Origin: Hydrolagus colliei
Taxonomy: Eukaryota
Direction: 5' to 3'
DNA length: 64,000 nt
Assembly: GCA_035084275.1 (NCBI GenBank)
Contig: CM068756.1
Coordinates: forward strand, 6,324,001-6,388,000
Shown piece after piece: positions 35,611-62,227 of this stretch. Numbering within the stretch: position 1 is the first letter of the stretch; every line of letters starts with the position of its first letter. The notes beneath the pieces are model-generated. The model did not search any database. It was not told the DNA's origin and saw only the letters and a program-made list of their open reading frames with translations. The position numbers and the translations under genes are program-made.

Positions 35611-37296
35611 GTAATGGAATCAAGTTTTAAAAAGTTGCCTCGCTGTCTCCTCTTTCCCAAAGAAGGAAAGTCCCTTTTCCTTAGTGCAACCTCAGAATGT
35701 AAATTTTCCCAAGTATAATTTGCAACTGCTAAATGGCAAGAATGTACTTCAAAGCCAACAACTGCACACAATAGACCAGATGGGGTCTGTCAATCTAGTA
35801 TATTATAAGTCCTTGTGGCTACAATTAGAACACTTTTGGACAGGCAACTTTGTTCTTACAAAGATATCCAAGATATAAATATACTATTATACACTACAGC
35901 CCACTGATGTGCTCCAGCCATTTGGTGATAGTGCCAAAATACTGTAAATACAAATTTTGGGGGGAACAAAATCATTAGGTTTAAATGTTAGCACAAAATG
36001 CATGAAACACCAGTTTTGTTTCATTCTGTTCTTTTAAAGTTGTGGACTGGCGATTTTGTGAAGAACATTCGCAAAAGGTAATGGTTTTATAATTCATGTC
36101 AAATTTGTAATTAAGAAGCCCTAATCCACCGAATAATAATGTTCTGATTGCAGCAGTTCATTTGGAATGGAGATTAATTAAGCAACACCATCACTTCAGA
36201 TTTAAAAATATTTAATCAATAATGATTTTCAGTTATTTGGAATGTATTTTAGAAATATTTTTTAAAATGTGAAACAATGGTGCTGAAACTCACCCATCCA
36301 CATGAAAAATGAATGCTCCTGCAACCTAGGTATAAATAGATATGGTGTATAATCTAGAGAAAATCCTGTGGTTACTGCAGGTGTATCAAGAATAATATGG
36401 AGTCAATTGCATCACAATTCTCCAGTGCAAACATCACTGTGCAACATGGACACTGAATGCACTGACAGCTGGTATCCTCTTACAACATCTGCCACTGTAG
36501 AAAACACAGACCCCCTACATATAATTGTGAACATGAACATTGTATTATAAACAACAGCTATGAGGGAGCGTTTTCAAAGTTGTAATCGAATTCAAAATTT
36601 CAACAACAAAAAAACTGTTCTAAGATGCTCAGGGCTTGTTCTTTGAAGTTCATCAAGTCATTAAAATTCGTAAATTAGACCTGTATTGTGAAATCTCTCC
36701 CAGGTATCCATTATTCTTTTTGAATTAATGTACCTTGGGCACTACCTGGTGTAGGATCAGGCCGTACAAGACCAGAAGATTCCTGGTTCAAATCTGATAA
36801 ATCTCAGCTGGGGCAGCAGTGGCCTCAGTGTCCCCTGCCCTATCTAAATGAAGTGGAGAGGGATTTAAAGTAACTTTCCAATCCCAATTGCTATCTACTA
36901 GACACACAAAGTGTGCTTATTGTGGATATATGGCGAGGACAGAGTCAACCTTGGCTGATATAAAAATTAATCATTGCTTTAGATAAAGCATCCTTCACGT
37001 CCAGAGGCTGTCTCAAACCACTTCACATGATTGCAGATGGAATATTCGTTTATGGCCTCACCCAGAGGATATTTCCCCAACGCTGCATAGACTGGAGTTC
37101 AAAATCCCAACAATGGGGCATGAACTTACAATCTTTTTGCTCAGTATGAGGGTGACGAGCTGGGCCAGGCTGACACCCACATTAGAGAAAACCACCAAAA
37201 CAAATTACTGTACGAAATCGCTGCAAACTACCACACTCAAGAGATATCCACATAGGAAAATACCTACTCATACAGTTATGCTTTGTCATGCAAAAG

Positions 37297-37822: not shown

Positions 37823-38017
37823 TCACATTCCCTGCTGCATCCTGGCAGCTTTAAATTTTGAAACTCTTTTTGGAGGCTCCAGTGGAGTTTCAGGTGCACT
37901 GTCTTCTTCAGACACTTTCTTCTCAGGTATTGTGGGTAGGATGGGATGAGCAATAGTAGCATGTGGAATAAATGAAGGCGAGAGCAGTTCCTTTTCCACC
38001 ACAGTGCCTGAAAATGC
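37823..38017 (-). CDS. URI1: URI1 exon 11, terminal (AFSGTVVEKE...KRVSKFKAARMQQGM*)
   Basis: atag|GCATTT; 64 codons then TGA at 37825-37823. Confidence 0.96.
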   Translation of the reverse strand, partial: AFSGTVVEKELLSPSFIPHATIAHPILPTIPEKKVSEEDSAPETPLEPPKRVSKFKAARMQQGM

Positions 38018-41000: not shown

Positions 41001-44000
41001 ATCCGGCACAGTCAATTAGTCGACCCTCCCCTGGAGGGTGCCGGATAAACGGTTTTTACTGTACAAAGTTTCTGGGCTTCAATCTTAGTAGACTAGACTA
41101 ATCAGCAAAAGACCTGTTTTTAACTAAAGGAAAACAATTGTTTTCCATTTTACAAACTACCAAGCAAATGTGCCCATTTCAAATAGAGATTGGGAGAAAA
41201 AAACACGCCATAATTGTATCTCATCTTTCAAAACCCAAAGTTTCCAACTTCTTTTTGACTTAGATAGAATAGAATCACAGACAAATTGTATATTTTTTAT
41301 AGCAATGTCAGCATTAGCAAACAGTAATGTGTATTGTAAACATAACGTTGTATTCAACCTGTTCACTAGCCTTTTATTACTGCAATATTAAGACACTGTA
41401 TGCGCATTCTTTTCTGTATCAAACTAATACAGGTTTCAGTTAATATCTAACAGGAGCTTGTGTGCAATTATTTTATCTCCATCCATTGCGGTTATTTAGA
41501 TTTATCCTGAAATTCCATGCTGTGGAGCAATTTTATTGTCACATTCAATTCAAAGCTCAAACCAAGCAGGAATTGGCACTTCACGTTTTTCAAAATAGTC
41601 AAGTTGATTTATAATGCATTTAAAATATATATATTATATATAAGTATTTTTTCTTGCAGCAACTGATCTTTGAATCTTGTGGAAATTTTGGTAACAGGAA
41701 ATTGAATGTAGTTGTAAATGTCTGCATTTGACTTTACAAGCAGTAGAGTACCTGAACAGAAAAACAGATATAAACTTGCATATGAATACGTACTCAAATT
41801 GTACATTTTTTAATCAATTACTGACTGATCAGCTCTACAAGGGAAACTGGAGTTTGCATTGGCTTAAAATTTACATATGGATTTGAAAATAAACTCTGAA
41901 CTGAAAAACAATCCCATTCAAGCTTTGAAAAACCTTAATTGACAATTTGACATTGCCAGCTCAAAATTATTTTGGAGGAATGGGATGGAAAATGTCAGAA
42001 AGTAATAAAGATTTGACAGGTTGGTTCTAGTTTGATTATAAAGTCTTGTAAACGTAGAGCAACAGTAAACATAGACCAACAGATAAATGTCAGTTCAAAG
42101 GCTGTAATTCAATCAAGGCATTCAGATGACGTCATAAATCACAACAGCAAAAGCTCAAGTGATTTGTGATCTGAAATATGAACCCACTGATATGATTAAA
42201 ACCTTTAATTCATCCCTTAGTATTTTACTTAGTACAGTCTATGCCTAATTTTTTAAAAGGGAGTTTCTTTACTGATGGCCCTTGGGGTAGTGAAGTGTGG
42301 CTGATGGCTGTGACAGCACAACAAATCTGGTATTCATCTGCTGAAGAATAGCTGTGTAGTGTGCTGGCTTTAATAGTACTGCAATTTCTCTGGAAGTTTA
42401 TGCTGTACAAAATACAACTTTGAAAACATTGAGCGTACACATAGGTGTTGATTTCTTCAGTTACTGATCCATGAATTAACATCCACAATTCCCCACTCAC
42501 TGAGCCACCAATGAGCCACCGAGTGACTCAGGAGTTTACTATGGGGAGATCAAACCTCATTCAATTCTAATGCACCTCTGTGGCAAAAGCCTCAGAGCAT
42601 TTAGTGCATGGTATGAGAGTCTCAAATGCTGAAGGGAGCAGAAATTATATTTACTGTGGGTCCTTAGAGAGTTTTGACAAACATATGCTCACAGGTTTCA
42701 CATTACTAAACAAATTAAAGACGGAACCTGAAATAGTAAGGATAAAGAAGAATACTGATTACTAAAAAAAAGCTCAGGACACAGGAACATTCCACACTGC
42801 TCTCAGATATTACTTAACCAGATATCAGCACAGGAATTTTAGAAACTAGATAATCTAGCAGAAAGTGGGGACAGTAAGTATTTTATGTCGCAACCTCCAT
42901 TACAGCACAACACGGTTCCTTTGATCAAGCCAAAAATCTCTATGGAGGTTTATTCCTTAAGGTTAGACATTCTTCAGCCACTTTGGAATATGCCTGTTTT
43001 AGCAGAACTCAAAACTTAAACCCATTCACATTATATTACCTAAGCATAGAATTTTCCCAACTTTATTCCAAACAGTGGCTTTTAAAAGCACCGCTGCTAA
43101 AATCAGTTAATGAAACTACAGTAAAAGCCCGTTTATACGGCACCCGCGGAACCTGGCCAATGCCGGTTAAAGCGCCTGCCGCATATTCGTGCAGCCCGCG
43201 GCCAAAAACCCACCACAAAAAAATTTAAGTTCTTTTAACACACACCATACACACCAGACTAAATAATAACAGAATATTGTATTGGTACTTATTGTTAAAA
43301 CTATTCTCTTGTGCTTCTCACCTTTACTGATTGAGGTTTACAGTCCAGCGATTCTTTTTAAAATGGAGCACGCCAAAAGGGTGAAAAAAACAGAGCGTGA
43401 CTTTAAAGCCTTACTAGCGGCAAACTGATAACCCTATACTCTACTAGCGGCAAACCGAAATACTGCACCAGCGTGACAGTGTGGGTTACCAACGAGCGTT
43501 ATCGGCTTGCCGCTAGTAAGGATTTAAAACTGCACTCCGTTTTTTTCACCCGCTTGGTGTGTCCTCCATTTTAAAAATAATCGCTGGACTATAAACCTCA
43601 ACCGCAGCATCATGGCTTCAAGCGCAGCATCTACTAGTAAAGGTGAGAATCGCAAGAGAGTAGTTTTAACAATAACAATATTCTGTTACTATCTGTTATT
43701 ATTTATGCATCTACAAATGCTCCACTGCTATTGTTCCAGCTAAGTTCCGGTTTATCGAATGGGGACTTTTTGTTGACGTGCCGGTTATAAAGTGTCGATT
43801 CATCAAGTCACGGATAAACAGGCTTCTACTGTATATGGACCCAAATCTACAGTACCAATATGAATCATTTCAAGTCCTTCACAACTATTATATAACAAGA
43901 TCAACCAGATTAAAAGAGAAACTCGAACAGGGAATATGGATGTGCAGTGAATTCCACCTTGGGGTCTCAATTCAAATCCAACCTCGTGTGAAATAATAGG

Positions 44001-47000
44001 AGTTTCTGTAATTACTGTGAAAGAGTTACACTGAATGCCTTATACTGTCACTGTCTGCAGAAGGTAGAAAAGTGTTCATTCCCTTGGATGGACATTCCTT
44101 ACTTTCATAAGTACAAAAAGCTTTCACAACTTAAAACACTTCCACAATACCTCCTTTGTACAGGCATTTTCACCAGTGTCCCAGGAGAACATAAATATAT
44201 TCTAAAAGCCCTGGGAGATTGACCTACAATGACAAGGAATTTGAGGAGGGGAGGGAGGAGAGTAATGCTCAGAAGCTGGCATATGTAGATGTAACATTTA
44301 ATAAAATGAAAGGAACGTAATTTTTTTTAATACTGAAGTTACCTCCTCTTCATTTCAGACATTTAGTACACGAAGGTATGGGCTGACAGTGCTTGCTCAA
44401 TGAGACTAATTCAGACAGGGAAACATGCAGCAGTCATTTTCGAGACAGCCTTGAATGGTATATCTATCATTGAAGTTTAGATCAATTGTGTAAAAAAAGT
44501 TAATTAAAAGACCTTATTGTCTTTATGATAGTATGTTTCATAACCATCATTTTAAACATTGACATTTACCTGTCGATTTCATCCTGTATCTTCTCCTGTG
44601 TTTCTAGTTCATCTAACCTGGCCCACAATTCCTCTTCAGTAAGCACACTTGGTTTTGTCTTGGAATCATCTTTGCTATCTTCCAGTTCTGCTACAAAAAT
44701 ATCTTTCGGCTTAAGGTTTTCTGTTATCTTATGAGCTTTTCTGCATTTTCCTGCAAGATCAGATTTTAAAAACACAACGGGTGAATTATAATTCAATTTT
44801 TTCCAAATGTCAAATACTTAATCTTTTTCTTTTACAATTTGGAAAATAATGTTTTCTCACTGTAACAATGAACAAACAGTTCATTTTAGACATCATAAAT
44901 GCTTCAGCAATTTTCAAACCTAAAATGTTAACTCTTTGAAGTCAGTATTCAAATGAGCTTTTAAAAACTTAATTATGTGGGGGGTGGGGTGGGGAGGAAG
45001 GTGGGGGGAAATAAACACACAAAAAGAAAGAAGTAATTTTGTTTGACCAATTGTTCTAAATCGGTTACAGATTGCTGGGTTGAAGAGTTTGGCTTTGGGG
45101 AAAGTATAATTATTATTTGTAATTGCACTTATTTCTAACTGAAATAATAAAAGAATTAATAATTTTATGCAACACTGAAAGATACACATTTTGAACCGGA
45201 ACAATGCCAAATTATTCACTGAATGATCTTTATTATAAAGCCCTCCACGGCCTCACCACACCCTACTGTTGCCACCTCCTATCCCCAACCAACCTGCCTG
45301 CTCCCTCCGCTCAGTGGGCTCTAGCCTCCTCCATGTCCCCCAACCCACCCGTCCCACCCTTGGCGGACGATCCTTCAGCCACTCTGCTCCTAACCTCTGG
45401 AATTCCATCCTACACTCCCTCCAATTTCCCCCCTCCCTAGCCTCTTGTCCCGCCTCAACTCAAGACCCTCCTCTTTGACAGTCCCATCGATCACCCAAAA
45501 TCCCCTCCTTTCTCTACACCCTCCCCGATCCCGTCCGCAGCTTGGGTCTGAAACATTGACGGTACAGCGCCTTGGGACATCCTCCCGATATGAAAAGCGC
45601 TATACAAGTGTAATTTTGCTGTTGTTGTTTATTGCTTCAAAATCCAAACTCTTTTATTAGAGCATTTTTTAAAAATGTTTTCCCAAACAATTTAGGAGTC
45701 CAGTTAAAAAAAATGCTGTAATAAAAGGTCCCCAAACATTTTAATGTTAAGATGGTTATACTATTCAACAAGAAGTAATCACCAATTCCAATTCACGCAA
45801 CCACAAGATTAAGGCAATGAATAAAGAAAACACAACCTAAACACAAATATGAAACAGGATATGCATTATCTTTTGTCCCTCTCAAAGTACTTTACGCCCT
45901 AGGTGTGGTTCAGAATTCAAATTGGTAATAATTGTTTTTATTTTTAAATTAAATTTAAAAACATTTAAATGAGAGCCACACATCTCTTTCAATCTTGCTT
46001 GAGTTTATGCAGTTTAAAATAAACAGAACAGAAAACAGATTTTCAATACCTTGTGAACTGAGGTCTTCAGGTTTAAGATCTTCATTCTGAATTTCCTCAT
46101 GTATTTCTACAATTTCTTTACTTTTCTATATTTGAAAATAAATAGTATTTAATAATAGTTTTAAATAAATCATTTTCTTTGGTAGCAGCTTGATAACCAT
46201 CTACAAAATGTCACACAAAATATCCTGTCAATCCACTTTACATTATATCTTGTGAAGAGCCTTGAGATGTCTCAGCGACATGATAAGGCGTTATATCAAA
46301 TGCAGAGATTATTATTATCATCATCCTCAACCACCTCCAGAATGGTGGAGTCACCTTTACAGGGGAGCTCATGACTTATTGTCTTCAGAAATTATGAGGT
46401 AAGGTTGCAGGCTCGCTGATTAAATGGAAAAAAAACTATAAAATCTGAAGAATCGACAGAAATATATGTAGAAAACAAGCAGTTTTAAAACTTCCTAAAC
46501 ATCAGATCATGAGATGTTAATAAAGTTATGAACAAATAGTAAAACTACATAATAAAAGATGTCCCATTAGCCTTCAAATAAATTCATTTGTAGCTTTCAA
46601 TGTATACACTTGTTTTGATTAGGTATATTAACGCTTCAACATAAGATCCTTAAAAATTAAAAGGACAACAAACCATAGCATTCCTAAAAGAGCCAAATAC
46701 TAGTTTTAAATTAATCTGTTCCATTTGTGAATCTTTTCCATCACACCAAATGGAACGTAAGGGAGCAAGAATCACAAAAGGTCATTCAGCTTTAACAGTA
46801 AATCTATGTTAGCTGAGCCTAATAAAATTGTAATAACTGCACATGAAAATTACCACATACATCAGCCACATTTTGCAGATCTTCAATGAACTTGACCCTA
46901 GATTCAAAGTTCTTCACTACTTTATGCAAATCATCTAGTGCTTTTTGTACATCTGAAAGGAACAACATTGATTTAGCAATATAAAGAAATATATATATTA

Positions 47001-50000
47001 CATTAACTAAGAGAAAATGAATAGTTTAAATATATGACAAATTTAAAATAAGGTAATCCTGAAGTGACGACCAACAATGATTTATGATAAAATGCTACCC
47101 AAGCAAAACGAATGACACCTAAGTTGTAGACCCACATCGTACAAAGTCTACATTCTCAAAGGGATTTTTTATGACACACTTTATTAATCTAATATGACAT
47201 CACTGCCTTTTAAAAGGACACAACAATGCAAGCTGTAATTTCAGATGGAGGGATGGTTTGGGAAAAGAAGGGTATTATTTAATGTACAACTTTGCACCCA
47301 CACATTTTCAGATAGTTGATGCTCTTATTTAGCACAGGGTTATTTGGCAATGTTATAGGGGGTTTGAGGTAATCTGTTTCATCCATGAAAAGCAGTCAAT
47401 GCTAATCATCGTGTAGATATGATGTTCTCTGTGTTTAAACACCTTGCCAAAAGGGCCTGCCCAGGGTTACATCTGAAAAATTATCTGTGGAACTATACCC
47501 TTGCTTTTAGAAGAGGAATTTAAGACTGGAATATTTGCATCACTGCTACAAAACAGCACAATTGAAACAGAACTTACTAATTCTCCTTTAAGAAGTCAAA
47601 ATGTTCAAAATGATCCAAGATCAAATATAGGTACAGCGGAACTTGGTTTATTTATTGGAGCTATGTAAATGCAATGCATCAAAACTGTAACAAAAATAAT
47701 ACTGATAAGAAATATCTACACATTATGCAGGGAAGAAGAAGGTGGCCATATACAGTAATGAGATGAAGCAATGTGCCTTTCAAGCTTCCTTAAAACCTAG
47801 CCAGCATATTTGGATTACTACACCTAATATATGGAGAATAGAGAATGAGGGATGATTTTTGAATAGAAAATGAAGGATGATTTAGAAGTAAAAATACATT
47901 TTGGTGGATGATATTGCATTTCTTGAATTCATTCATCAAAATTATGGTCTACCTGCTATACATCATTGCTCATTGTAATATCCATAATACCCATAGTATA
48001 ATTAGCAAGAAAACCTAATATAAGAAGGGTAATCAAACCATGTAACAGGATAATAAAGGTTATGTTATTTAAACAGGGGAGAATCTAATTCCCACTTTTC
48101 AGCCTCAGAGAAGAAACTCCTAGTGCACTAAAGGAAAATAAGATTTCATTAACAAGCAGGAAATTGAAAATGCATGCATTAAAATGACTGCATAAACAAA
48201 GGGAAATGATGGTGTAAACAATTCATAAAATTATAAAGCCTTGAAGTTTGATCTAGATCAAATTTCTGCAACAATTAGGCTTTTTACACAGCAGCAAATT
48301 GGTATGGTTGCCATAGCAAGGCTAAGCCCTGAAGCCATATATCTTTGATTCTGGAAAGGTCAGACTTAGACAGCCTAATAACTCAAGAACTGTTTGACAG
48401 ATTTCAACCAAGCATGGTCAAATAATAATATAAAACCATGTCTGTGGTTGTTAAATGCTGGAGGTCGGCAAAAAGGTTAAGGTTATGGAATGTTTTTGCT
48501 TAACTCAGAAAGATAATATGAATAATTATGTCTGGATCTAAGGCACAATTTAGGTGAGAGGTTAAGATACCGCATTTTTCAATAACTTTAATAAATGTTA
48601 AGCAGCCAGCCAAATCACTGGCATAATAAACTATATTAAAGTGAATCTGAAAGTGAGCAAACATTACACAAAGACGGTGGACTAAACAAATCCCATTTCA
48701 AAGATACAAAATACGGTGTGCGCTAGTTGGGCCGATTGGCCTGTTTCTGTGCTGTAATAGTCTATGTAATTCTATGTACAGTAAACTCTTCCAATACCTC
48801 AATGAATTCATCCAGTGAGAATTTGGTTCATACAGACCATTAATGTTGGTCTGATCAGAATGTTACAATTCTGATCTGCAATGAATTAGTTGATTTTAGT
48901 CAAGTAGTCAGGATACTTCAAGTGCCCTATGCTAGTGTAGTGACTGCTTTTGCAAGCAAACTCATCAACAATTTACGCAAGCAAGTTCCTAACCAACCAT
49001 GAGGCAAATGATCAATTTAGTACAGGCGTTTGTGTCAGAATTAAATAATGTCAATACAAATATTAAGCTTTCACTAAGTTGCATTGTTTACCTATAAAGC
49101 AGCTCAATGTGGATTTATTCCCTGTGTACAGATTACTCACAGTTGCCTTGAAAAACAGTTTTTTTTAAATGTGCTCAGCTCCGTTTTCCATGAGTGAAAC
49201 ATGTCTCAAGCATTGTTCCAAAATAACTCATCAATGAAATCAATTATTTGTCAACAGAATGAACAAAGCCACTCTCTGTGCAAAGTGTGAAACTACAAGC
49301 ACTTTGCTTCACCAGATAGTGAATGTGAAAGTTATACTTGATCAAAACCATTGCTATTATTGCGACATTTTACAATACAAACACTGGTCAAAACATTTAA
49401 GCAATCATTGTCTACAAACTGAGGTTCAGCAAGTTTTTGCCCAAAATGATTCAATCAATTCATTGAGGTAATTAAGTAACTGATTTTATACCACGTACTG
49501 TAACAATAGATAGCATAGAAAATTTAATTGGTGAATGTCAGATGATAAATGGAAAGAATCCCTTGAAGTGAAGCCTGAAATCACACGATTTCACCATTGG
49601 TTTCCCCATCATTCAGAGGATTCAAGACGTCGTCACCTTTAAAATCCTCCATGGCCTTGCCCAACCCTACCTCTGTGACCTCTTAACCCCCTATCAACCT
49701 GTCCCAGTCCCTCCGCTCAGCGGGCTCCGGCCTGCTCCATGTCTCCCAACCCACCATCAGCGGGCGAGCATTCAACCACTCTGTCCCCAACCTTCGGAAT
49801 TCTCTCCCGCAGTTCTCCGCCTGCCCCCTCCCTAAACTTCTTCAAGTCCCACCTGAAGACCCTCCTCTTCGACCAAGCCATCAGTCAGCCCCATTCCCCT
49901 CGCATTCCTCCACGCTCACTGATCCCGACCCAGCTCGGGTCTAAAACATTGACTGCCCAATGCCTTGGGACATCCTACCGACATGAAAGGCGCTACACAA

Positions 50001-53000
50001 TGTAATTTTGTTGTTGAAACAGAGATCACACTCATAATTTTTTTTGCTGCAGTTTTTGATCTCCAGTAATGTGCGGACAATGTGAAATAAGGTAAACTAG
50101 CAGAGCTTATTTAAAAAAGACAATTTGAAAACACATTTAGAAAAATAATTATTTTTAATACACATTAAATTCAAGCTGAAAAGGAATGCAGGTATAGAGG
50201 AATAACTTACGCTTTTTCCTGTGCTCTACCAAGTCTGCAGCTTGCTTTGCAGAACACTTTGCAAACCAGTTGTCACCCAGTAACACAGTGACTTCATTTG
50301 TATGCACTAGCTGTCCAGGCATAAATGCAAGTGGGCCAAATGGCACCTATCATAAAAACAAATTAAAACATTTACATCAGGAATTCTATGAGCTCTGCAT
50401 AGATTTAATTACATTTTGAAAATGTGCACATTGTTTTTTTAACTAGGCTTCAATATGAATACTTAATTACAGTAATAATCTGATAAAAGGGTCTCGTTTC
50501 AGTTAATACATCTACCCCACTCCCATATCTGGCTAGGTAGAAAAAGCAAACAAACTTTGATGTTGAATGCCTCAAAATGCTTCACCGGCATTTACTGTAG
50601 TGACCGTCTTTGTGGGCAAACACAACAACTGGTGAGGTGAATAACTAATTTATCCAGATGATTGTTGGCCATGGGAAAACCTCCCATCTTTTCAAACATG
50701 CCCTGGAATATTTAATGTCCATTTGGAAACATGAATGGAACCTCAGTTTAATAACTCCAAAGCAATATACGGTTATAGAGTACCTTTCACATCAGGAGGA
50801 GATCTCATAGAGGAAGGGCTTAAACTCACTACCTTCCAACTCAGAAGCCAAAGTACAACCAACTGAACTAGCCACTTTCATCCTCATATTCTGAACGCAA
50901 GAAATGCCCATTATCTTATGGGTGATTCTTCCCTCAAGTCTGGCCTCCATCCACACTGAAACAACCATTCCTGTTTTTCTCCACATTATAAAGGTCATTG
51001 TTGCTTTGAACTTTCCCCTTCTCATCCATTCCAGATTCCATTTGTGGGGTACCAATGTTTTTTGATCAAAGGATGAACAGATCATATAAATAAACAATGT
51101 TGCTGTACATTTTCAGTCCTGATAGTTTTTCTACAGATGGTGGTTGACTTGTGATCCAGCTAAAATTAATTTAAACCTCAACGGTTCCATTGAGGTTCCT
51201 CATACCTTATATCCAGGTTAAGTTACCATTGAGGTAAAAAAAACCTCTGAACATCCGAAAGCAACCACAGTTAATCTAATGACATCAAAATACCATAAAG
51301 TGTTTTAGTTTAATATCCAGAAGTGTTACATCAATAAAAATGGAAAACAAAAATTGGCAGTTGGAATGAGATATTATAGTTTAAATTGTTAATAACTACT
51401 GTAAATACCCGCGTATAGGGCGCACTCGCGTATAAGGCGCACCCCCCACTTTTGACCTTTTCTTGGTGAAAAAAAACGGAAGCATTTTCGATGATATTGC
51501 CGGCAGAAGGGAGGGAGGCANNNNNNNNNNNNNNNNNNNNNNNNNNNNNNNNNNNNNNNNNNNNNNNNNNNNNNNNNNNNNNNNNNNNNNNNNNNNNNNN
51601 NNNNNNNNNNNNNNNNNNNNNNNNNNNNNNNNNNNNNNNNNNNNNNNNNNNNNNNNNNNNNNNNNNNNNNNNNNNNNNNNNNNNNNNNNNNNNNNNNNNN
51701 NNNNNNNNNNNNNNNNNNNNNNNNNNNNNNNNNNNNNNNNNNNNNNNNNNNNNNNNNNNNNNNNNNNNNNNNNNNNNNNNNNNNNNNNNNNNNNNNNNNN
51801 NNNNNNNNNNNNNNNNNNNNNNNNNNNNNNNNNNNNNNNNNNNNNNNNNNNNNNNNNNNNNNNNNNNNNNNNNNNNNNNNNNNNNNNNNNNNNNNNNNNN
51901 NNNNNNNNGGCAGCAAGCACAGCACTGAAGTCCTCTGCTGCTGCCGCTGCCCGGGCGGCCGAGGCCAAAGCCGCATCACCTGCTCCCCCCAACCGCCGCC
52001 GGACAGTGACCAAAGCCCGGCTGACAGCGCACGGGCCGCCCCTCCTGTTTACTGTATTTCCTAGGCTAAAAATTTATTGTACCTGCGTATAGGGCGCACC
52101 CACAACTTTCGAGATCTTCCGACGTGAAAAAAAGTGCGCCTTATACGCGGGTATTTACGGTAAACAAATACAATTAAAAACACTTGCATAGACATCCACA
52201 TTTTGTGAAACAGTTCGAAATCAAATGCTTTAAAATAACTAATAAAAAATGACAGTCACTTGAAAGGATGAATGGACACTAATGCTTTCCTGATCCTGCA
52301 AGAGAAATCTGCTGTTATTGGAAATATTAAAGCCAGCTAGAATATACTCAACAATGTCAATCATTAAAATGAATAAGCCACTTGTCTGTATTTTTACTTT
52401 GTAATATTACAGTAAAAGCCTGTTTATCCGTGACCTGATCAACCGCAACTTCCGTATAACCAGCACCTCAAAAAAAGGTCCTCATTCGATTAACCGTAAT
52501 TTATCCGGCACAATGCATTTTTTTAAAAAAACTTTTGTGTGTGTGTTTTCGGCCAAATATCCGGCATGCGCTTTAACCGGCATTGGCCAGGTCCTGAGGG
52601 TGCCAGATAAACGGGCTTTTACTGTACTATCAATATGTTCCCAAAAGTCATGAAATAGACTCGCCTCCAAGAGAAAATTTATGGTGAGTTTGCAAGCAAG
52701 ACGCTGTGTAATCTATATTCTCAGTTCCTATAAACATAAAAGGTGTTAAAAGAAAGTCTGACTATATCCTTCAAACTAAAAGGGTACACACTCACAGAGA
52801 ATCAACCTCAAGACAAGCAATCTAGTCAGAAAACAGGCAATTCTTTTTTATCTAAAATATGAAGCCATTATTGTTACAGAACAAAACATTTTTTATATCA
52901 GTAACCAATGAGGCATGAGTCAAATGAATTACTGCTTCAATTGGTGATAAAAGTATTGCTGATTTCACCTTTAATTTGGAATTTCATATAGACTATTCTA

Positions 53001-56000
53001 AGCTTTTCAGATTGCTTGTGAGCAACTTTGATGAGGGAGATATGAGGTAATTCTGCAATATTATGCATCTACACCTATTATGCATGCAATTACAAGGGCA
53101 CGTAATTGGATAATTCCCTAGGGTGTAACTTAAACACATAAAGAAAGGCCATTTAGGCAAAGTACCAGTGGGGACCTGTGGAACCAAGCTGCCAGCATGT
53201 CACCACATTTGCACATAGAAACACTCAAGCGATAAGATGCAGGAAACTCATGCTACATCATTTCCCAATCCAACATGGGAGGAGGGGAAGAGGTTAAAAC
53301 AAAAATGACAAAATTTGCACCTACCATAACATCATAGGACAGTTTGTCAGGCAAAGTCTTTAGTCTTTCTTGAAGTGCTTCATAGTCACTTTGCACCTTA
53401 TTCCTAAGCAAAGAATAGTTTGTTAAATGTTTGGGATTTCATTTTTAATTGTTTAAACATTTCACAAAATGCACACAAATAAATTAACTGTGCAATTTTT
53501 CTATTATTTGTTTTCAAGGAACACTCAACACTTACCAATCATAAATAAGACCAGCTAACTAATGTGCTGGTTCATCTGCTTTACAGAATGTAACTGTAAT
53601 TGAAGAAATACTCATACTACTTTAATCGAGCCTCAAGAGCCTAGGCAACTAATATACCTTAGTCAACACTGTTATGTTTGGACAAATGTCCATTGAATGA
53701 TCTACCTCTCAGAAAAGCAAAAAACAATAAAATTCCATTAAAAAATTTACACGAACACTCTAGCAATCAAACAGATTGCATTTTAGAAATTAATCAAATT
53801 AGAATTTCAACTTACTATCACTGTCAAAATTAATTCATAAAAATTTGTTTTAAAATTTATGGTTGACAGTGATGATGCCAACCTGACACAACTGAATGCA
53901 ATCTGGGAACAAAGGAAGATTTTTATTGCTTAATTCCTTAATTGCATAAAGGAAGCTATTCCCAAGAAAATCATAGGTTGTATGCAGGTAGTTATCTGTT
54001 AAATAGAAGAGATGATGCTTTTCCTGCCACATTTTAAATGATGGATATATATGGGGAAATAAACAATGATTATGGATTTTCAGTAGAACAAAAAACGTAT
54101 AACAGAAGGGAAAGTTTGGTTATAACCCAGGCTCATGTATTTGCTTTGCAGCAATAAGGGCCTACAATGTAAGTATGATTTGAACAATATTTTAAATTAA
54201 GGAGGAGATATTCCACAAATTATGCTTTCAATTCAATTCACCCAAAAAGATGCTTTTGGGATGATGTTTGCAATTCGGCCATTCTTTATTTGTGAAATAT
54301 GTAGCATGAAGCAGGCTAGATTATTCAGGAAGGGCAGATGTGAACTATATAAATGAGACTTATTTATCCTTATCAGATAACCATCCATGACTTGGAACTG
54401 GGACATGGACACAGGCTGATTTTCCCCTTTACCCACACTAAAATGCTGTCCATAATCAAGTTTGAAACTGTGACTTCCCTGTAGGATGTGAATAATTGAT
54501 ACTAATACTTATATTAATTTTTCTGTGATTTTTTTTAAAAAGTAGCAAAAATATTAAAGAACTTTTGTTTAATCTACTGTAAACAAGATTAAACTACTTT
54601 TTTTCTGAACACAAATGTTTTTATTGGCTTCACTATTCCCAAAACAAGAAAACAGTGATCAGCAATTACTCACTCAGCCCCACTTATTTCAAGTCCTCAG
54701 TAAAATTAGTTTAGACTCTGCTATTTTGTGATATTTCATAGCTAGTTCAAAAGATGGTTACTGCACGAAATGAGGTACAGACAACTAATGGAACTGTGCT
54801 TCTTATTTCAGCCTGTCGCTAGAATACATGGCTAAGATGGAAAATAAATGTACTCTATATCTAGCTTGACAATTATTTTTCAGTTGAAGGCAAATCATTT
54901 ATTTACCATAAAGCCTGCATTACCAATTGTCAAATAGAACTAATCATATTTCTTCAATAAACCAATAGGAAATAGAATTCGGTAGAGTGAGTGAGCAATT
55001 TACGCAAGATTTGTTTTTCAAAAATCACTGTTGACTTAGGTTAGTTATTCATTTTGTTTATTGGATAAGTGATATCACACAATTTACACAAAAGATAAAT
55101 GTTACCAAATTGTTGCTGCTGAACTTTAAAAACATTATTAATTCCAATATTTATAGTTGGAAGATTTATTGGAACATTTGGACTTACCAATGCTGAATTT
55201 TTTCCGTGCAGCTTGAAACTACCTGTTATTAAAATAGACAACTGCTCATAAAAAGCAATGTCGAGAATTCCAAGTACTGTAAACATGAGTGCAACATACA
55301 ACAATAGTAAAATAAATTTATCAGAATAACAAAGGCATTTGGAAACAAAAGTTACTGTTATATGGAACATATTTTGCTTGGTGATATAAAACACTACACC
55401 ATACGTGAAGGCAAGGTAAAAGTACACAACAAAATTCCCCTTTAACATCAGTTTACATCCTTCACTCGGCTTATAAAAAGGGGAGAATGGGAACTACGAA
55501 ATACTCGTTCAATCTATAGAAACATCTCTATTCACAGAATCTATAATCTGCTTTGCCAAAATAACCTGTTTTTCATAAGAATACAGAGTAGGAGCAGGCC
55601 ATTCAGCCCCTCGAGCCTGCCCCTTTATATTGCATTTTATAAATAGGTCATGGAAAATACTAAAATACAAACATTTATTAATCTAAAATATAATCTGAAA
55701 TCTTCAAATGTTTGGGGTCAACCAAGTGTCTGACTGATGCATGCAGATACCAATTACCATACTTCAAAAAATATATAAACCAGAGTTTTACGTGTGCATC
55801 CCATCTATGTATGGAAATTGCTATACAGTGCACTATTGTTGTAAATCTTTGTTGAGGAAATCAAAGATATACACTTGCAATATGGTAGGATAAGTACACA
55901 ATATTCCTGATGAGTCATTTGACTTATCAAAATAATACAATGCCTTGGGACGTCTTCCCGACGTGAAAGGCACACTATAAATGTAATTTTGTTGTTTTGT

Positions 56001-57974
56001 TGTTATTGTATCAATAGATTTTTTTAAACTAGATTGTCATTGATTGATACAATATCTCGTATGTGTAAAGGCCTAAAGTACAATATGCACATTTGCAAAT
56101 GTTCCATAAATATCCAGCCAGAGGGGCCACAATGATCTTTTCTGGTGTTGTCCATCCCCTTCAATCATACAAATTTGGAAATTATTAAACTTTGTTCATA
56201 AACAAAAGCTTTTTTGAAACTGAATAATCTTTTCATTTTCAAATTACTGTACTATACTGCTTGCACATGTGATTTAAATTGATTTCTCATTGTTCTGAAA
56301 CAGTTACATGAAAGGAAACCTTTTATCACACCTAAAGTTTTTTTCCTGAATGGATTTTATTATTTCCTCCAGTCCCAGTGACATGTCTGTCTCATATTTC
56401 TGCCAATACCTCCAGGAGCACTGGAAGAACCACCAGAAACAGTTCATCTGTTCTCCCTACCTTGCTATGATGAAGTGGCTATCCAAATACCTTCAGGTTA
56501 GTCCAATAGTATAATAGGCTCAGTCTGATATCATATTGACATTCAATCTGAATAGGACTACTGCAATTTCTCAGATTATTTCGGGGGAAAGGGGAAGAGC
56601 TCTATGACATTAAAAGTATGGTAACACATATGGTAAATCGGAACATTAGACTGAAAACAAAATGTTGTTGAGCTTTTATCTTCAGAATTAAATGCAATTT
56701 TAATCTGAAGATTTCAATTTTGTATTTCTATTAAAGTCCCACCATCAGCCTCTAGGGAGCGCCAATGCACAGTGTTGAACCATCGTGGTATTCTTAACAA
56801 TGTCCTGATGGTTACTGTAAACCCCATTGATAAGAAAACCGACAATAGTATGAAGGTAGAGTTCATAATCTCCCAATGCCTTGGTTTAATGCTGTTTTCC
56901 TTTCATAGCAACTCTTTAAGTACAAGAAACACGATGGTCAGCTAAAACCAGTTTTATCTAGGCAACATTTAAAGTTTGCACGATTTTGGATCTCATGAAA
57001 AATGTTCTCCTTGCTGTGCAAATATGATAACGCACAATCTGCTCTACTAGTTGGGCATTCACTAGTTAAATTGAAGAAGAAATGCAATGTTAATAACAGA
57101 TAACACAGAGGAATTTAACTCAGGTTTTAAATTGCAATACTAACACGCTTCATAGACTCCTAGCCAAAGATAACTGAAAAAAAGTCAAAAATGTATTTTT
57201 TATTTTTAAGTTTACGTGATTCTTCACAATTTCCCTTGCAAGTTTAAGTGTTTTAATCCGCGTTTACGATATTGAACAAAAAAGGTCTCTGTTGAATTAT
57301 TGTTAAAACTCATTAACTTTGAACTATTAATGCGGATTTTTAACACTAGTAATTGTTTAGATGTTCTGATTTGTTTGGGGGTAAAACATTGTTGTGTTAC
57401 TCGCTGGGTGGGTGGGGGGGGGTCTATCCAATGACTGAAGGGAAGTACTAAAACCATTTTAAACAGAACGGCCCCGCGGTGTGGGAAGTTTACTGTTTCA
57501 CCTACAATTCGGAACCTCGCAAAACGTTTAACGTCAGACTCTCCACTCTTTGTACATTTGTTTGTGTGTGTGTGTGTGGGGGGGGGTGGGGGGGGGGGGA
57601 CTGACGACGATGGAAAGTTTAAAGAATTTAAGGATTGGACAAGTCCTTGAGTACAAGGAAGGAGCATATACTCGACTGTGTTTGGTGGGGGGGGGGATAA
57701 TTCCAGACAGTAAAGAGACATTAATTAGAACTGGTTCACGGCGTCGCGTTTCCGTTTAAAGCGCCACTGCTCCAACTCCAGGCGTTTGCTTTGAACTCAG
57801 GGTCCCCCGGGTGCAACGGCTCCATTCGTTCCTTCTTCCAACCCTCGGCCTGCCAGACCAGACCGCCTGTTAACTGACTCGCTTTACCTTGCCGTGCTCT
57901 TCCCCGAGTCGGGCCACTTGATGCGAGCGAAGCGCGTTGCCGGCGAGGGGCTGCTGCTTCTGCGAGTCCGCCAT
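37823..57974 (-). CDS. URI1: URI1, unconventional prefoldin RPB5 interactor 1 (11 coding exons, 521 aa; whole-gene span)
   Basis: Manual splice reconstruction: exon lengths 87+35+79+136+92+76+181+292+149+244+195 = 1566 nt, all GT-AG, open frame. Recognisable alpha-prefoldin domain (MVPFGPLAFMPGQLVHTNEVTVLLGDNWF), EELWARLDELE segment, acidic tract, RKSILKSRSRENSVCSDTSES and C-terminal KRVSKFKAAR (URI box). Confidence 0.97.
38172..38246. repeat. Short imperfect tandem repeat (gctaaacagctagtactaaaRgta, ~3 copies) in URI1 intron 10
   Basis: Directly visible repeated ~23-24 bp unit. Confidence 0.75.
38632..38875 (-). CDS. URI1: URI1 exon 10 (MFVDVVNGEYIPRKSILKSRSRENSVCSDTSESS...PGLFE)
   Basis: 244 nt, gtag|AATGTT...TTGAG|gtgaga; follows a 118 nt intron. 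Confidence 0.96.
38994..39142 (-). CDS. URI1: URI1 exon 9 (VRINTGRNTTLKFSEKKEVAKRKRRNS...LPNIKSPTDIYR)
   Basis: 149 nt, tcag|GTAAGA...TATCG|gtattt; basic NLS-like KRKRR. Confidence 0.95.
40107..40398 (-). CDS. URI1: URI1 exon 8 (TSDTVDGNSGENSSSEDEQ...DDNDDDDVPTILFTHTMEPKR)
   Basis: 292 nt, tcag|AACGTC...AAAAGG|gtaagt; acidic tract followed by PTILFTHTMEPKR. Confidence 0.92.
40655..41061. mobile_element. Tc1/mariner (pogo/Tigger-like) MITE
   Basis: TA-flanked; ends CAGTAAAAGTCAGTATATCCG ... CGGATAAACGGTTTTTACTG. Confidence 0.85.
43119..43831. mobile_element. Tc1/mariner (pogo/Tigger-like) MITE with long internal inverted repeat
   Basis: TA-flanked; ends CAGTAAAAGCCCGTTTAT ... ATAAACAGGCTTCTACTG. 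Confidence 0.9.
44570..44750 (-). CDS. URI1: URI1 exon 7 (GKCRKAHK...EEELWARLDELETQEKIQDEIDR)
   Basis: 181 nt, gcag|GAAAAT...GACAG|gtaaat; matches ORF-track 44566..44796. Confidence 0.94.
45233..45630 (+). mobile_element. L2-clade LINE 3' fragment in URI1 intron 6
   Basis: KALHGL motif, then cagcgccttgggacatcctcccgatatgaaaagcgctatacaagtgtaattttgctgttgtt tail. Confidence 0.88.
46050..46125 (-). CDS. URI1: URI1 exon 6 (KSKEIVEIHEEIQNEDLKPEDLSSQ)
   Basis: 76 nt, atag|AAAAGT...ACAAG|gtattg; IVEIHEEI resembles IVDIREEI; phases fit both neighbours. Confidence 0.88.
46225..46322 (+). mobile_element. SINE 3' part in URI1 intron 5
   Basis: tgtgaagagccttgagatgtctcagcgacatgataaggcgttatatcaaatgcagagattattatt. 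Confidence 0.75.
46861..46952 (-). CDS. URI1: URI1 exon 5 (HVQKALDDLHKVVKNFESRVKFIEDLQNVAD)
   Basis: 92 nt, tcag|ATGTAC...GCTGAT|gtatgt. Confidence 0.95.
49595..50016 (+). mobile_element. L2-clade LINE 3' fragment in URI1 intron 4
   Basis: cattggtttccccatcattcagaggattcaa...ctccatggccttgcccaaccctacctctgtgacctc is near-identical to 25214-25310; same tail. Confidence 0.88.
50211..50346 (-). CDS. URI1: URI1 exon 4 (VPFGPLAFMPGQLVHTNEVTVLLGDNWFAKCSAKQAADLVEHRKK)
   Basis: 136 nt, atag|GTGCCA...AAGC|gtaagt; alpha-prefoldin beta-hairpin signature. Confidence 0.97.
51399..52160. mobile_element. Tc1/mariner (Tc2-like) non-autonomous element spanning an assembly gap
   Basis: TA-flanked; TIR CYGTAAATACCCGCGTATARGGCGCAC at both ends; subterminal repeat of GCGTATARGGCGCAC; GC-rich interior partly N. 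Confidence 0.88.
51521..51908. other. Assembly gap
   Basis: Run of N. Confidence 1.
52410..52624. mobile_element. Short copy of the same MITE family (opposite orientation to 43119-43831)
   Basis: TA-flanked; CAGTAAAAGCCTGTTTATC ... GATAAACGGGCTTTTACTG; shares acctggccaatgccggttaaagcgc (reverse complement) with the 43119 copy. Confidence 0.9.
53325..53403 (-). CDS. URI1: URI1 exon 3 (NKVQSDYEALQERLKTLPDKLSYDVM)
   Basis: 79 nt, ttag|GAAT...TTATG|gtaggt; prefoldin helix. Confidence 0.95.
55188..55222 (-). CDS. URI1: URI1 exon 2 (VVSSCTEKIQHW)
   Basis: 35 nt, acag|GTAGTT...CATTG|gtaagt. Confidence 0.93.
55940..56005 (+). mobile_element. L2 3' tail fragment
   Basis: tgccttgggacgtcttcccgacgtgaaaggcacactataaatgtaattttgttgtt. 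Confidence 0.78.
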
Positions 57975-58400
57975 CTCCTCGCAAGCGGCGTGTGTCTGTC
58001 TGTGACTGACTGACTGTGTCTCCCTCTCTCTCTCTCTCTCTCCCCGCGAGGGGCGGAGGGGGGGAGACACACACCAAAGAAAAAATCACCTCAACAACTG
58101 CGAGTCCTAAAGAAATGTTTATGGAGGTGATCACTGCAGCCCCGGAGCTCCTGACTCCTCGTACACATAGAGGGAGCAATTGACGTTGTCATCCAGGCGG
58201 TCGGGGCGGAACACATTTCACACTCGCATTATTCCCGCTTCAGCCCCAACGGTTCGAACCAAAGCTCCGCTCGCTCTCAGCACCGCCAGCAGCTCGGCGC
58301 CATCTTGCTCTCTCTCGCTGAGCATTCTGGGAGGGCAACACAAGGCACCACAACAAGCGGCCAGACAGACAGCAGCAGCTCCAGCCTCACTCAGCCACAG
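57450..58400 (-). promoter_or_regulatory. CpG-rich promoter/first-exon region of URI1
   Basis: CpG-dense against an AT-rich background; GC box GGGGCGG (~58203), TGACGT (~58181), YY1-like AAGATGGCG (~58298-58306, minus), (GA)n tract upstream of the ATG. Confidence 0.7.
57888..57974 (-). CDS. URI1: URI1 coding exon 1 (MADSQKQQPLAGNALRSHQVARLGEEHGK)
   Basis: ATG in gagATGG context; ends AAG|gtaaag, phase 0; VARLGEEHGK resembles the VARLREEQEK end of mammalian URI1 exon 1; CpG-rich setting. Confidence 0.9.
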
Positions 58401-58537
58401 CACAGGCAACCAACACACTAGCCACAGGCAACCAGCACACTAGCCACAGGCAAACAACACACTAGCCACAGGCAACCAACACACTAGCCACAGGCAACCA
58501 ACACACTAGCCACAGGCAACCAACACAGTAGTCACAG
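58401..58537. repeat. 22 bp minisatellite, ~6 units (left arm)
   Basis: Unit gcaaccaRcacactagccacag; ctag at 58418, 58440, 58462, 58484, 58506, then a degenerate sixth unit. Confidence 0.95.
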
Positions 58538-58630
58538 TGTATTTCCCCCCTATTACAATGAGCAACAATTGGCAAGCTAAGGATCTTCAGTATTTAGAGA
58601 AGCACAACTCAGATGTAACCTTATAGATGT

Positions 58631-58750
58631 ACAACAACAACAAAATTACATTTATAGAGCGCCATGTCGGGAGGATGTCCCAAGGCGCTGAACAGCTAGG
58701 TCGGGGCCGAGCAGGGACGGATGGGTTGGGGTAGCAGCAGGGGGAAGGAG
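58631..58750 (-). mobile_element. L2 3' tail fragment in the inverted-repeat spacer
   Basis: acaacaacaacaaaattacatttatagagcgccatgtcgggaggatgtcccaaggcgctg. Confidence 0.78.
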
Positions 58751-58866
58751 AGTAGGAAACATTTTGAATGGAGCTGAAAAGCCAAATTCAGAACAATGCT
58801 TTAGAAGCGTTTCTCAAACAAGTGATAAGGCGCAAAGGATGCAAAGGATTCATATTATGTATCACT

Positions 58867-58950
58867 AAATAATAATAATCCTTGCATTTGATATAGCGCT
58901 TTTCACATCTTCTAGACGTCTCAAAGGATTTAGGATTCACAACTGTAAAA
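58867..58950 (-). mobile_element. SINE 3' tail in the inverted-repeat spacer
   Basis: aataataataatccttgcatttgatatagcgcttttcacatcttctagacgtctcaaag. Confidence 0.75.
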
Positions 58951-59254
58951 CAAGAGGCAATAATTGGTTTAAAGTGGCAAAGGACAGACACCACAAATCA
59001 CAGAATGATACAGCACTGAAGGAGGCCATTCGGCACATCATGTCTGTGCCAGCTCTTTGAAAAGAGCTATTGAAAGTCAATGAAGTTTTTCTTTAGCAGA
59101 AGAGCAAATAATTAATGACTCGGGTGGGGCGAAGGGGGGGGACAGACAGATTCCTAGGAAGAGTGCCAGAGGCAAGGACAACTGGACACTTAGTTTTAAA
59201 AATATATATATACCAGTATTTAAAAAGTTTGAGTGACAAGAGGCTGGTGTTGTG

Positions 59255-59457
59255 CTGTGGCTAGTGTGCTGGTTGCCTGTGGCTAGTGTGCTGGTTGCCT
59301 GTGGCTAGTGTGCTGGTTGCCTGTGGCTAGTGTGTTGGTTGCCTGTGGCTAGTGTGCTGGTTGCCTGTGGCTAGTGTGTTGGTTGCCTGTGGCTAGTGTG
59401 TTGGTTGCCTGTGGCTAGTGTGCTGGTTGCCTGTGGCTAGTGTGTTGGTTGCCTGTG
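59255..59457. repeat. 22 bp minisatellite, 9 units (right arm, reverse complement of the left array)
   Basis: Unit ctgtggctagtgtgYtggttgc; ctag every 22 nt from 59261 to 59437. Confidence 0.96.
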
Positions 59458-60260
59458 CTGTGGCTGAGTGAGGCTGGAGCTGCTGCTGTCTGTCTGGCCG
59501 CTTGTTGTGGTGCCTTGTGTTGCCCTCCCAGAATGCTCAGCGAGAGAGAGCAAGATGGCGCCGAGCTGCTGGCGGTGCTGAGAGCGAGCGGAGCTTTGGT
59601 TCGAACCGTTGGGGCTGAAGCGGGAATAATGCGAGTGTGAAATGTGTTCCGCCCCGACCGCCTGGATGACAACGTCAATTGCTCCCTCTATGTGTACGAG
59701 GAGTCAGGAGCTCCGGGGCTGCAGTGATCACCTCCATAAACATTTCTTTAGGACTCGCAGTTGTTGAGGTGATTTTTTCTTTGGTGTGTGTCTCCCCCCC
59801 TCCGCCCCTCGCGGGGAGAGAGAGAGAGAGAGAGGGAGACACAGTCAGTGAGTCACAGACAGACACACGCCGCTTGCGAGGAGATGGCGGACTCGCAGAA
59901 GCAGCAGCCCCTCGCCGGCAACGCGCTTCGCTCGCATCAAGTGGCCCGACTCGGGGAAGAGCACGGCAAGGTAAAAGTGGTCCCTCGCTCGAGTCCGAAT
60001 TGGTACTCGTTGCCTTCCAACATTTTGGCCTTGTGCAAACAAAACCCGTGTAAAGAGTGAGACGGTCGCCCGACATTTGAAAGTTTTGCATCGAGTTTTA
60101 CGAGGTTCCGATTTGCAGATCCTATCAAAATATCGTAGCCGCGAATTAATTCCCCAGTCCCTTTAAAGCGTTGACGTGAAATCTATTGGTTGAGCGGCTT
60201 CTAGCCATTGAGCAGTGGCGTTTGGGTGTGTCCAGAGTTCAGAGAAAGTACGAGAAGGCG
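59458..60260 (+). promoter_or_regulatory. Mirror-image CpG-rich promoter region of the duplicated exon 1
   Basis: Same motifs in the opposite orientation; CpGs continue past the donor to ~60260. Confidence 0.6.
59884..59970 (+). other. Second, inverted copy of URI1 coding exon 1 (identical 29 codons, intact AAG|gtaaaa donor); function unknown
   Basis: Same translation as 57974-57888; no URI1 exon-2-like sequence found on + up to 64000. Confidence 0.85.
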
Positions 60261-61924
60261 GTTCGTTATCCAGGCAACTCCCAGACATTTTCACAAACCT
60301 TCCCCTTGTATAGAGAGGGAAGGGAAAATAAATTAAAACAGAGGGGTTACATGTCAGAATTTGATCATCTTTCTCCTCCCATCCCCTAGGCTACCACCCC
60401 CAACTCGGTTCTCCTAGTTGAAAAGTGTAAATGTAAATTTGTATTCAACTTTTCGTAATTACAGCTTTGTAATTTTTTCTAAAGTGAAATCTGAACCTAA
60501 TCCATTCACTAATTACTTGCCAAGTCTTTTTAGATTGGCACTGGATTTAATCAGACAGATATACATATGTGTCTGATACGTGTAAATTGGAGCTATGTTT
60601 GTGCTTTCAAATACAAAGCAACAAGCAACATAAATCTGATTTAAACCAGATTCAAATGGCTTCTGCTTGTTAAACAGTTTCGTGTTTTCACAAATGTGGT
60701 GGGCATTTTCTGAATACTCATACTAACTCCCAAAACAAATTGGTGAGATGGGTGGGGTGGGGGGTTGTTTGACATTTCCAGTTATGAACAAGACAAATTA
60801 ATCATTGCATATAGTTCTTCAGCCATACATTGGCCCTGCATGAGTGTGCGTGTGTGTATGTATATATATATATATATATATATCCACACACATACACTGT
60901 CTATCAATTGGAATTATGATGCCATATGGAGTGTAGAATTTTTACCAGGAATAGAATCTGCTGTTGGAACAGGTGTTCATTGTGAATGAGTGGATGGTCA
61001 ATGGTGATCATTAGGATTTATGCTTGTACATAAATCAGTTATGTTGCCAAGTGCCACATTAAATTTTGTGTTGCTGCCACTAAGTTTCTGTGCTCTATCA
61101 TCTGACATGAGGCTTTAAAACCAGATCAAAAGTGGCTCTTTGTATGACACCCCATTTAATCAAGGCTTCTAGCATCTGCTTAAAACTATCGTGTAATCCC
61201 AAATTTGTCCCGACTTTAGATTCTGCATAGTGTGCATTCTACAATGATCTTCACCAACTTTGGGTGCCATATTTTAATTTAAGAATCAAAGAGCTGGCCC
61301 TTTCCCTGAATTCCCAACTTGTATATTTTACCAGTGACTTGTACTTTACTGTACTCTATCCCTTACCAATAATTCAGTTCCACAATGCATGTCAAAAAAG
61401 CTGTAAAATATACTTAAATTCCATACAATTTCCAATGTTTAATTTGAATGATTCTTTCACCATGTGTTGGAAATTGTTGTTTCTGATGCATATTGAATCA
61501 AACATAATCTCAATACTTGTTCACAAAAAATATTCAAGCTTACCAAAATGTTCAGGCTTCAAATCTCAGTTTGTAATAAAAAATATACATTTCTTCATGA
61601 AGTAAATAGAATGGCCATTTGATCTTAAAGATTCCAACACTAGTTGTTCAGTATCAATTTACTGTACTGAGCATAAATTATTACTTGCGAGGGTTTTTAA
61701 AAAATGCATTTACTTCTCTATTTTGACTATTTTCATGCATGTTTGCCAGGTAAACTTAAGTTGTGGTGGCCAAGTTATGCCTAAATAGCGCCTGCTGCTG
61801 TCAACAGAAGTATTTAACATAACAAAAGCCTTATTGAAAGAACAGCTGCTGGTGCAGTTTAAGTTGGAAGCCTACATCAGTGTGCCTATGGGGAGGAGCT
61901 TTCTCCAAAACTGATGATTTGATG

Positions 61925-62227
61925 ATAATAATAATCTTACATTTGATAAGTGTTTTTCATGTCTTTTAGATGTCTCAAAGCGCTTCACAGAATATACTGT
62001 AAAGTTAATTGACTGTATGTGGGCGAAACGCGGAAACCAATTGTGCACAGCAGTGTCCTGCAAAATCATGGATTGAAATGACCAATTTATTATTGTGGGT
62101 TTTTTTTGGAAGTTTATTAGGTGTGTGGAGTAAGGAAACTTGCCCCAAGTTTCGCCCTGACCTGCTTAGATTCGAACACAGGTCTAACACTTGCAAGGCA
62201 ACTGCTCTAACCACTGAGCTATAGGCC
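61925..62227 (-). mobile_element. Near full-length tRNA-derived SINE with L2-like 3' tail (DeuSINE-like)
   Basis: Minus strand begins ggcctaTAGCTCAGTGGttagagca (A box) ... GTTCGAATC (B box); body ctgtgcacaattggtttccgcgtttcgccc; tail tgtgaagcgctttgagacatct...(att)n. Confidence 0.85.

Follow-up and report, generated by a model that had tools for sequence, protein, structure and literature searches.

A probably old and homogenized inverted duplicate of URI1 promoter and first-exon DNA in Hydrolagus colliei

Here we analyze a 64,000-nt stretch of the Hydrolagus colliei genome (GCA_035084275.1, contig CM068756.1, positions 6,324,001 to 6,388,000; hereafter the window, in whose coordinates all positions are given) that carries the gene for unconventional prefoldin RPB5 interactor 1, URI1. 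The promoter and first coding exon of URI1 are present twice, as an inverted, head-to-head pair of almost identical arms. An earlier inspection of the same DNA without database searches, here called the sequence-only reading, proposed that this pair is an old duplication that once extended into intron 1. The inverted copy is real; it is probably old and homogenized, on evidence thinner than that reading implied. On balance, we favor a partial duplication of old date in head-to-head orientation, with 5' ends repeatedly homogenized by arm-to-arm gene conversion.

The left arm (57883..58537, minus strand) contains the URI1 promoter, the 5' untranslated region, coding exon 1, the first 5 nt of intron 1 and 6.2 units of a 22-nt minisatellite, and the right arm (59321..59975, plus strand) is an inverted copy of this segment, the duplicated 5' ends being divergently oriented. 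The arms are identical at 650 of 655 positions. Four of the five differences fall in the minisatellite, with a single one in the 518 nt outside it; none of the five is more than 125 nt from an arm end, and the 445-nt interior is perfectly identical. The microsatellite lengths are equal in the two arms. Identity ends sharply at donor +5, that is, 5 nt into intron 1. URI1 coding exon 1 (57888..57974, minus, 29 codons) is spliced to exon 2 at 55222; its duplicate (59884..59970, plus) is identical and keeps the GT donor, and without splicing it reads through to a stop at 60060, giving 58 amino acids. Both arm donors have GT, with scores no different from those of the donors of URI1 itself (7.1 for the right copy; 6.2–11.0 for the ten URI1 donors that served as the training set of the matrix).

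The promoter in each arm is CpG-rich and includes a ZNF143/Staf-like site followed by a YY1-like site (58334 and 58306 within 58298..58334, minus; mirrored at 59524 and 59552, plus), which we assign from motif consensuses and whose function is presumed. The right promoter may well be active, as judged by its identical sequence and retained CpG. At the inner edges of the arms lie the two minisatellite arrays (left, 58401..58537, 6.2 copies; right, 59255..59457, 9.2 copies), and the order of the unit variants in their proximal part is largely common to both. They enclose a unique spacer of 717 nt (58538..59254), which is poorer in CpG (observed/expected ratio 0.43). Two short tails of dispersed repeats lie in it, and its halves gave no sign of inverted homology (23/150 and 12/150 shuffles). 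A 50-nt imperfect palindrome (76%) occupies the spacer center at 58839–58887, partly within the tail of a short interspersed element (SINE). Each arm also has a 35-codon upstream open reading frame and a B-box-like palindrome (58220–58324, minus; 59533–59637, plus), some 330 nt before the URI1 start. Neither Pfam nor Atlas matched the 35-amino-acid product. The B-box-like palindrome had raised the suspicion of an RNA gene or a tRNA-like element, which was dropped for want of Rfam or tRNA support. More generally, neither the arms nor the shared blocks described below gave an Rfam or tRNA match, and their folds are not unusually stable (z-scores 0.06, 1.96 and -0.01).

Assembly errors could give rise to a structure of this kind: a fold-back chimera, a haplotype retained as a false duplicate, or a misjoin across the minisatellite. 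Sized N gaps interrupt the scaffold at 2085–2240 and 51521–51908, suggestive of a draft; the right array, of about 200 nt, could be mis-spanned, and the orientation of the spacer may be arbitrary. However, the sequence from 51908 to 64000 is gap-free, the four arm junctions join different unique flanks, and both ends of the spacer abut an arm, which would force a head-to-head arrangement in the assembly graph. In a fold-back the symmetry would continue beyond the arms, and two alleles would be alignable across their introns; neither is seen. Exon 1 is the same in the two copies and lies at most 92 nt from unique flank. The argument of the sequence-only reading against a simple artefact therefore holds, and we consider such an origin very improbable. 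Part of the arm identity could nonetheless be assembler consensus: the perfect interior, with all differences near the arm ends, is what a collapsed consensus of two real copies may produce, and this milder artefact is compatible with the explanation that we prefer.

The left member of the pair belongs to an intact gene. URI1 (37823..57974, minus) has 11 exons and 521 codons in a single open frame, and all ten introns are GT-AG. Exon 4 matches Pfam Prefoldin above the cut-off (E 1e-7), and the last exon matches DUF3835 below it. Exon 10 as a query matched 485 proteins, and the best of the 120 listed was URI1 of Callorhinchus milii; taken as a whole, the H. colliei protein is 90.6% identical to the C. 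milii model P0001, 66–74% to its elasmobranch and 58–62% to its bony-vertebrate counterparts, values that point to a holocephalan distinct from C. milii. The Prefoldin domain, the conserved C-terminal motif, the intact frame and the top matches, which are named URI1, identify the gene as the URI1 orthologue, a standard member of the vertebrate family nearest to that of C. milii. The C. milii model begins within exon 3 and lacks exons 1 and 2, which may reflect a 5' region that is hard to assemble there too, although this is only a hint. Exon 2 of H. colliei URI1 (55222–55188, minus) is 35 nt long, and the positions of exons 1 and 2 place intron 1 at 55223–57887 (minus). The flank to the left of the inverted pair is thus genuine URI1 intron 1.

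Beyond the arms, the two flanks share three short blocks. Block B (57500..57525, minus; 60095..60120, plus) matches at 22/26 positions, as the sequence-only reading had reported, and is the significant match between the flanks. Block A (57564–57540, minus; 60036–60062, plus) is collinear with it and not significant independently. The intron strings that the earlier reading had quoted for A and B are present at these places. Block C (57253..57273, minus; 60129–60149, plus; 18/21) is collinear and weak. An 11-mer cited as a further sign of homology lies at 60210–60220 on the right, as given, and at 57772–57762 on the left, one base off; a shared 11-mer or longer arises by chance in 155/2000 shuffles and this one is out of order, so that it was discarded as evidence.

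The significance of the flank similarity was assessed by the best local alignment of 500 × 500 nt under seven scoring schemes. Global dinucleotide shuffles reached the observed score in 0, 2, 0, 0, 19, 43 and 30 of 2000 cases, local 50-nt shuffles in 1, 5, 2, 7, 28, 39 and 20 of 2000, and real pieces of the window in 0–13 of 430. With a pair hidden Markov model (pair-HMM) anchored at the arm end, the counts were 1/400 and 0/400 shuffles; for the left flank, four real pieces came near or above the observed score, and these are C-rich low-complexity matches. In the wrong orientation, both local alignment and the pair-HMM scored at null level. No signal was obtained with 300-nt flanks, in which block B is cut off, or with two schemes of very cheap gaps, in which the alignment turned global. 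Among random real 500-nt pairs, 3/4000 reached the score after repeat masking, which is partly circular as a control, and in a smaller set 3/140 did, namely two AT-rich matches and one end of a miniature inverted-repeat transposable element (MITE).

The two copies of block B are each other's best match within the 64-kb window (E 0.003–0.004; next 0.14). With up to three mismatches to their consensus, no third copy is found there, and near matches to the 11-nt core are not in excess (5 against 3.3 expected). These counts, which cover 64 kb, speak against the notion that block B is a piece of a dispersed repeat such as a MITE end that entered each flank in a separate insertion. In favor of this notion, the window is rich in pieces of SINEs, MITEs and long interspersed elements (LINEs), and one of the three chance pairs that were inspected is a MITE end; we nevertheless regard it as scarcely credible.

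The right flank (59976..60290, plus) cannot be aligned to the left intron outside the blocks and has a high CpG content, with 21 CpG in 315 nt (observed/expected ratio 1.16; the end of the interval was picked by eye). By comparison, 527 intervals of 315 nt in 1–56500 have a mean of 3.7 CpG and a maximum of 17, and the ratio in the whole window is 0.38. Methylated vertebrate DNA loses CpG. Retention of CpG in the right flank therefore suggests that this DNA has stayed unmethylated for a long time, which would suit the downstream border of an old promoter. Such a site would be an unlikely place for a recent copy to land, although an older unrelated promoter could have existed there.

In neutral simulations that assumed block B to be unconstrained, the observed flank score fits about 0.4–0.6 substitutions per site. 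The divergence of the arms is about 0.002 (95% upper limit 0.011), so that the flanks are at least about 35-fold more diverged. If the duplication is old, as block B, the CpG content and the simulation together suggest, these values require later homogenization of the arms. Scaling by the epaulette shark mutation rate of 7e-10 per generation (PMC10587355) gives more than 3e8 generations, which is implausible, and no date was derived.

We favor an old duplication extending into intron 1 because of the modestly significant block B in the expected orientation, the lack of a third copy in the window and the CpG-rich, unalignable flank. This part of the sequence-only reading stands, on about 25 nt only, two of the three matches that it cited adding little or nothing. 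In the proposed scenario, an old inverted duplication starting at the 22-nt minisatellite would have taken in the URI1 promoter, exon 1 and the start of intron 1, for a few hundred bases or more. With the arms less than 0.8 kb apart, repeated non-allelic, probably intrachromatid, gene conversion would have kept the 655-nt core near-identical. In the intron, large indels would have broken the pairing and conversion would have ceased there; the distance before block A is now 318 nt on the left and 60 nt on the right, and that between blocks B and C about 230 and 10 nt. The flanks would then have drifted to about 0.4–0.6 substitutions per site, leaving one recognizable block. Conversion is reported to end once large indels disrupt pairing and to cease as divergence accumulates (PMC3924837). 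If the right copy were neutral, indels arising in it would be expected gradually to shorten the tract until its edge lay within the exon. More speculatively, the boundary at the splice donor, a single observation, hints at selection on the donor in both copies.

The scenario of repeated conversion has a close variant, in which the duplication is old and the present identity stems from a single recent overwrite, either one long conversion or a re-duplication. One genome cannot tell one event from many, and the uniform identity and sharp edges fit a single tract. Still, arms that had diverged as far as the flanks, by about 0.4–0.6 substitutions per site, could hardly be overwritten by a homology-dependent process that ceases with divergence (PMC3924837). 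It is for this reason that we infer repeated conversion; a single overwrite appears improbable.

Several observations weigh against an old duplication reaching into the intron. The intron homology depends on a single 24–26-nt block: when block B was shuffled, the pair-HMM signal was lost (81/400 and 73/400), and when it was fixed and the remainder shuffled, 80/500 reached the observed score, blocks A and C adding little. One block therefore carries the homology evidence, and the collinearity of two blocks that the sequence-only reading had stressed, although correct, lends little further weight. In three of the seven scoring schemes p is only about 0.01–0.02, and without repeat masking 37/4000 random real pairs reached the score. 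Tests of the A-B-C chain under four gap settings gave 10, 0, 1 and 79 of 700, and in the scheme with 79/700 the wrong orientation scored higher. The identical microsatellite lengths are just as well accounted for by a very recent origin or by assembler consensus. In the 4 kb to the right of the copy, searches gave no exon 2, no Pfam domain and no RNA family, leaving no function that would explain its long retention. Of the remaining blocks, A alone was matched by 27/600 shuffles in one scheme and 203–600/600 in four others, counts on which we rejected it as independent evidence, and C alone by 12/600 (best) and 97/600 in two schemes, with none in three others. A comparison of the whole left intron with the 4 kb on the right revealed nothing beyond block B at E <0.1. 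Overall, block B probably represents real homology resting on about 25 nt, with p about 0.001–0.02. The alignment against shuffled controls that the earlier reading had suggested bore out block B at modest significance.

The same observations lend some weight to a recent event in which the 655-nt promoter-exon segment alone was duplicated in inverted orientation next to DNA that was already CpG-rich, for example by a staggered-break inversion or a template switch, with block B as a chance match or a shared binding site. Conversion would then be unneeded. The near-identity of the arms, including their microsatellite lengths, fits such an event, as do spacer halves without homology and the lack of a downstream gene in the DNA searched, and the flank evidence to be explained away is one block with p up to 0.01–0.02 in some null models. 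Three things would have to coincide for such an origin: within 64 kb, the top match lies by chance at the right place and in the right orientation, the landing site is richer in CpG than any of the 527 intervals, and the breakpoint falls 5 nt beyond a splice donor. We consider a young duplication rather unlikely. As a side observation, both copies of exon 1 encode Gly where all other compared URI1 proteins with the homologous exon-1 peptide have Arg (L-R-E-E motif). The Arg-to-Gly replacement is apparently a derived change common to both arms, and would be expected under conversion and under a young duplication alike.

To the right of the duplicated exon, the window extends for 4 kb, and within 59976–64000 a motif search, a scan for the 35-nt exon and tblastn with 16 chondrichthyan proteins revealed neither exon 2 of URI1 nor any of its later exons. 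Consequently, of the two intron-1 regions named in the sequence-only reading, the left one is established and the right one is only presumed. No Pfam domain was present in 46 of the 79 listed frames, with five further overlapping frames scanned, and no RNA family was found. A crude splice scan yielded 17 acceptor-donor pairs, most of them containing stops and none convincing. A word search found no proteins of 31–102 or 168–2000 amino acids that open with exon 1 and then diverge, a weak negative given that URI1 itself was missed by the exon 1 query. A search of representatives gave five weak matches with 6–9 repeated stretches, chiefly on the intron-derived part of the query.

Strand skew provides a hint of transcription. 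Measured on the plus strand, the skew is -0.074 ± 0.011 in URI1 introns 2–10, only -0.028 ± 0.028 in intron 1 and about zero in the DNA to the left of the gene. At 60300–62000, an interval chosen post hoc, there is a T-over-A skew of +0.064 ± 0.032, with the sign expected for rightward transcription and a size as in the URI1 introns; 60300–64000 as a whole has none (+0.015 ± 0.022). Together with the boundary at the donor and the retained CpG island, this skew hints that the right arm could be a working second first exon, that is, an identical housekeeping promoter and exon 1 driving, and spliced into, a different transcript, with selection on the donor pinning the boundary at +5. We put this forward tentatively, as a less likely reading. 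Equally tentative is the extension that the conversion lock dates from before the holocephalan families split, about 187 million years ago (PMC12952989), and that the transcript is a long non-coding RNA or comes from a chimeric gene or from a URI1 paralogue situated outside the window. In 57000–64000, AATAAA occurs only twice on the plus strand (60327 and 61575) and six times on the minus strand, a difference that is not significant; the two plus-strand motifs are candidate ends of a rightward transcript. A tRNA-headed SINE lies at 61921–62228 (minus; Rfam tRNA at 62157–62228) and has a relative at 2716–2941.

We compared the pair with described systems of duplicates subject to conversion. The closest is primate SIGLEC11/SIGLEC16, likewise head-to-head duplicates. 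There, the converted upstream DNA and 5' exons are 96.9–99.3% identical and adjoin more diverged homologous sequence, whose counterpart in the URI1 pair is probable on the modest significance of block B, and a tandem repeat, (GAAT)n in place of the 22-nt minisatellite, marks the 5' boundary (PMC5701461). In contrast to the H. colliei arms of 655 nt less than 0.8 kb apart, both SIGLEC copies are multi-exon and about 9 kb apart, their flanks are 88–93% identical rather than nearly unalignable, and conversion was demonstrated by species trees (PMC5701461), whereas here it is proposed from one genome. URI1, moreover, is a housekeeping gene, and its second copy has no visible body in the 4 kb that follow the exon. 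The palindromes of primate X and Y chromosomes also have inverted arms, whose very high identity is ascribed to arm-to-arm conversion, and a lifetime of more than 100 million years has been suggested for the FLNA-EMD inverted repeats (PMC8327919; PMC3308322). Those arms are 8–140 kb long, mostly hold whole genes and are located on sex chromosomes (PMC8327919; PMC3308322); the URI1 pair, with 655-nt arms holding one promoter and one exon, falls outside the large palindromes. The course described for concerted evolution in PMC3924837, in which divergence stays low while pairing lasts and becomes clock-like once large indels or substitutions have put an end to conversion, resembles that proposed here, except that in the opsin and RNase genes the introns are homogenized and the exons diverged, the reverse of the URI1 pattern. 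No description of a URI1 first-exon duplication was found among the papers listed in the literature searches, which covered few subscription journals; protein records cannot show one.

Homogenization of duplicates by conversion is an established mechanism, and the pair would add one more case to it unless the right copy is functional. If our interpretation is correct, concerted evolution would here have acted on an unusually small scale and, it seems, over a very long time, confined to a sub-kilobase promoter and first exon of an essential-type gene, with decayed intron beside it, and would bear on what sets conversion boundaries and on whether selection keeps orphan first exons. In practice, arm identity would misdate such duplicates, and reads from exon 1 of URI1 would have two mapping positions.

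The remainder of the window (37% G+C overall) has numerous LINE, SINE and MITE fragments. Decayed LINE copies, about 70–75% alike and presumably of L2 type, occur at 24511–25647, 34967–35619, 45233–45629 and 49592–50019, the first with a reverse transcriptase match at 24511–24786. A GC-richer 1.45-kb segment at 32710–34164, possibly an insertion, is bounded by AT-rich inverted repeats of 68–71 nt (87–89%); the five open reading frames inside it have no Pfam match. MITE-like elements with common termini are located at 40894–41008, 43108–43833 and 52408–52635, and are CpG-rich, as is the element at the 51521–51908 gap. The one at 43108–43833 includes a 430-nt internal palindrome (43263–43692).

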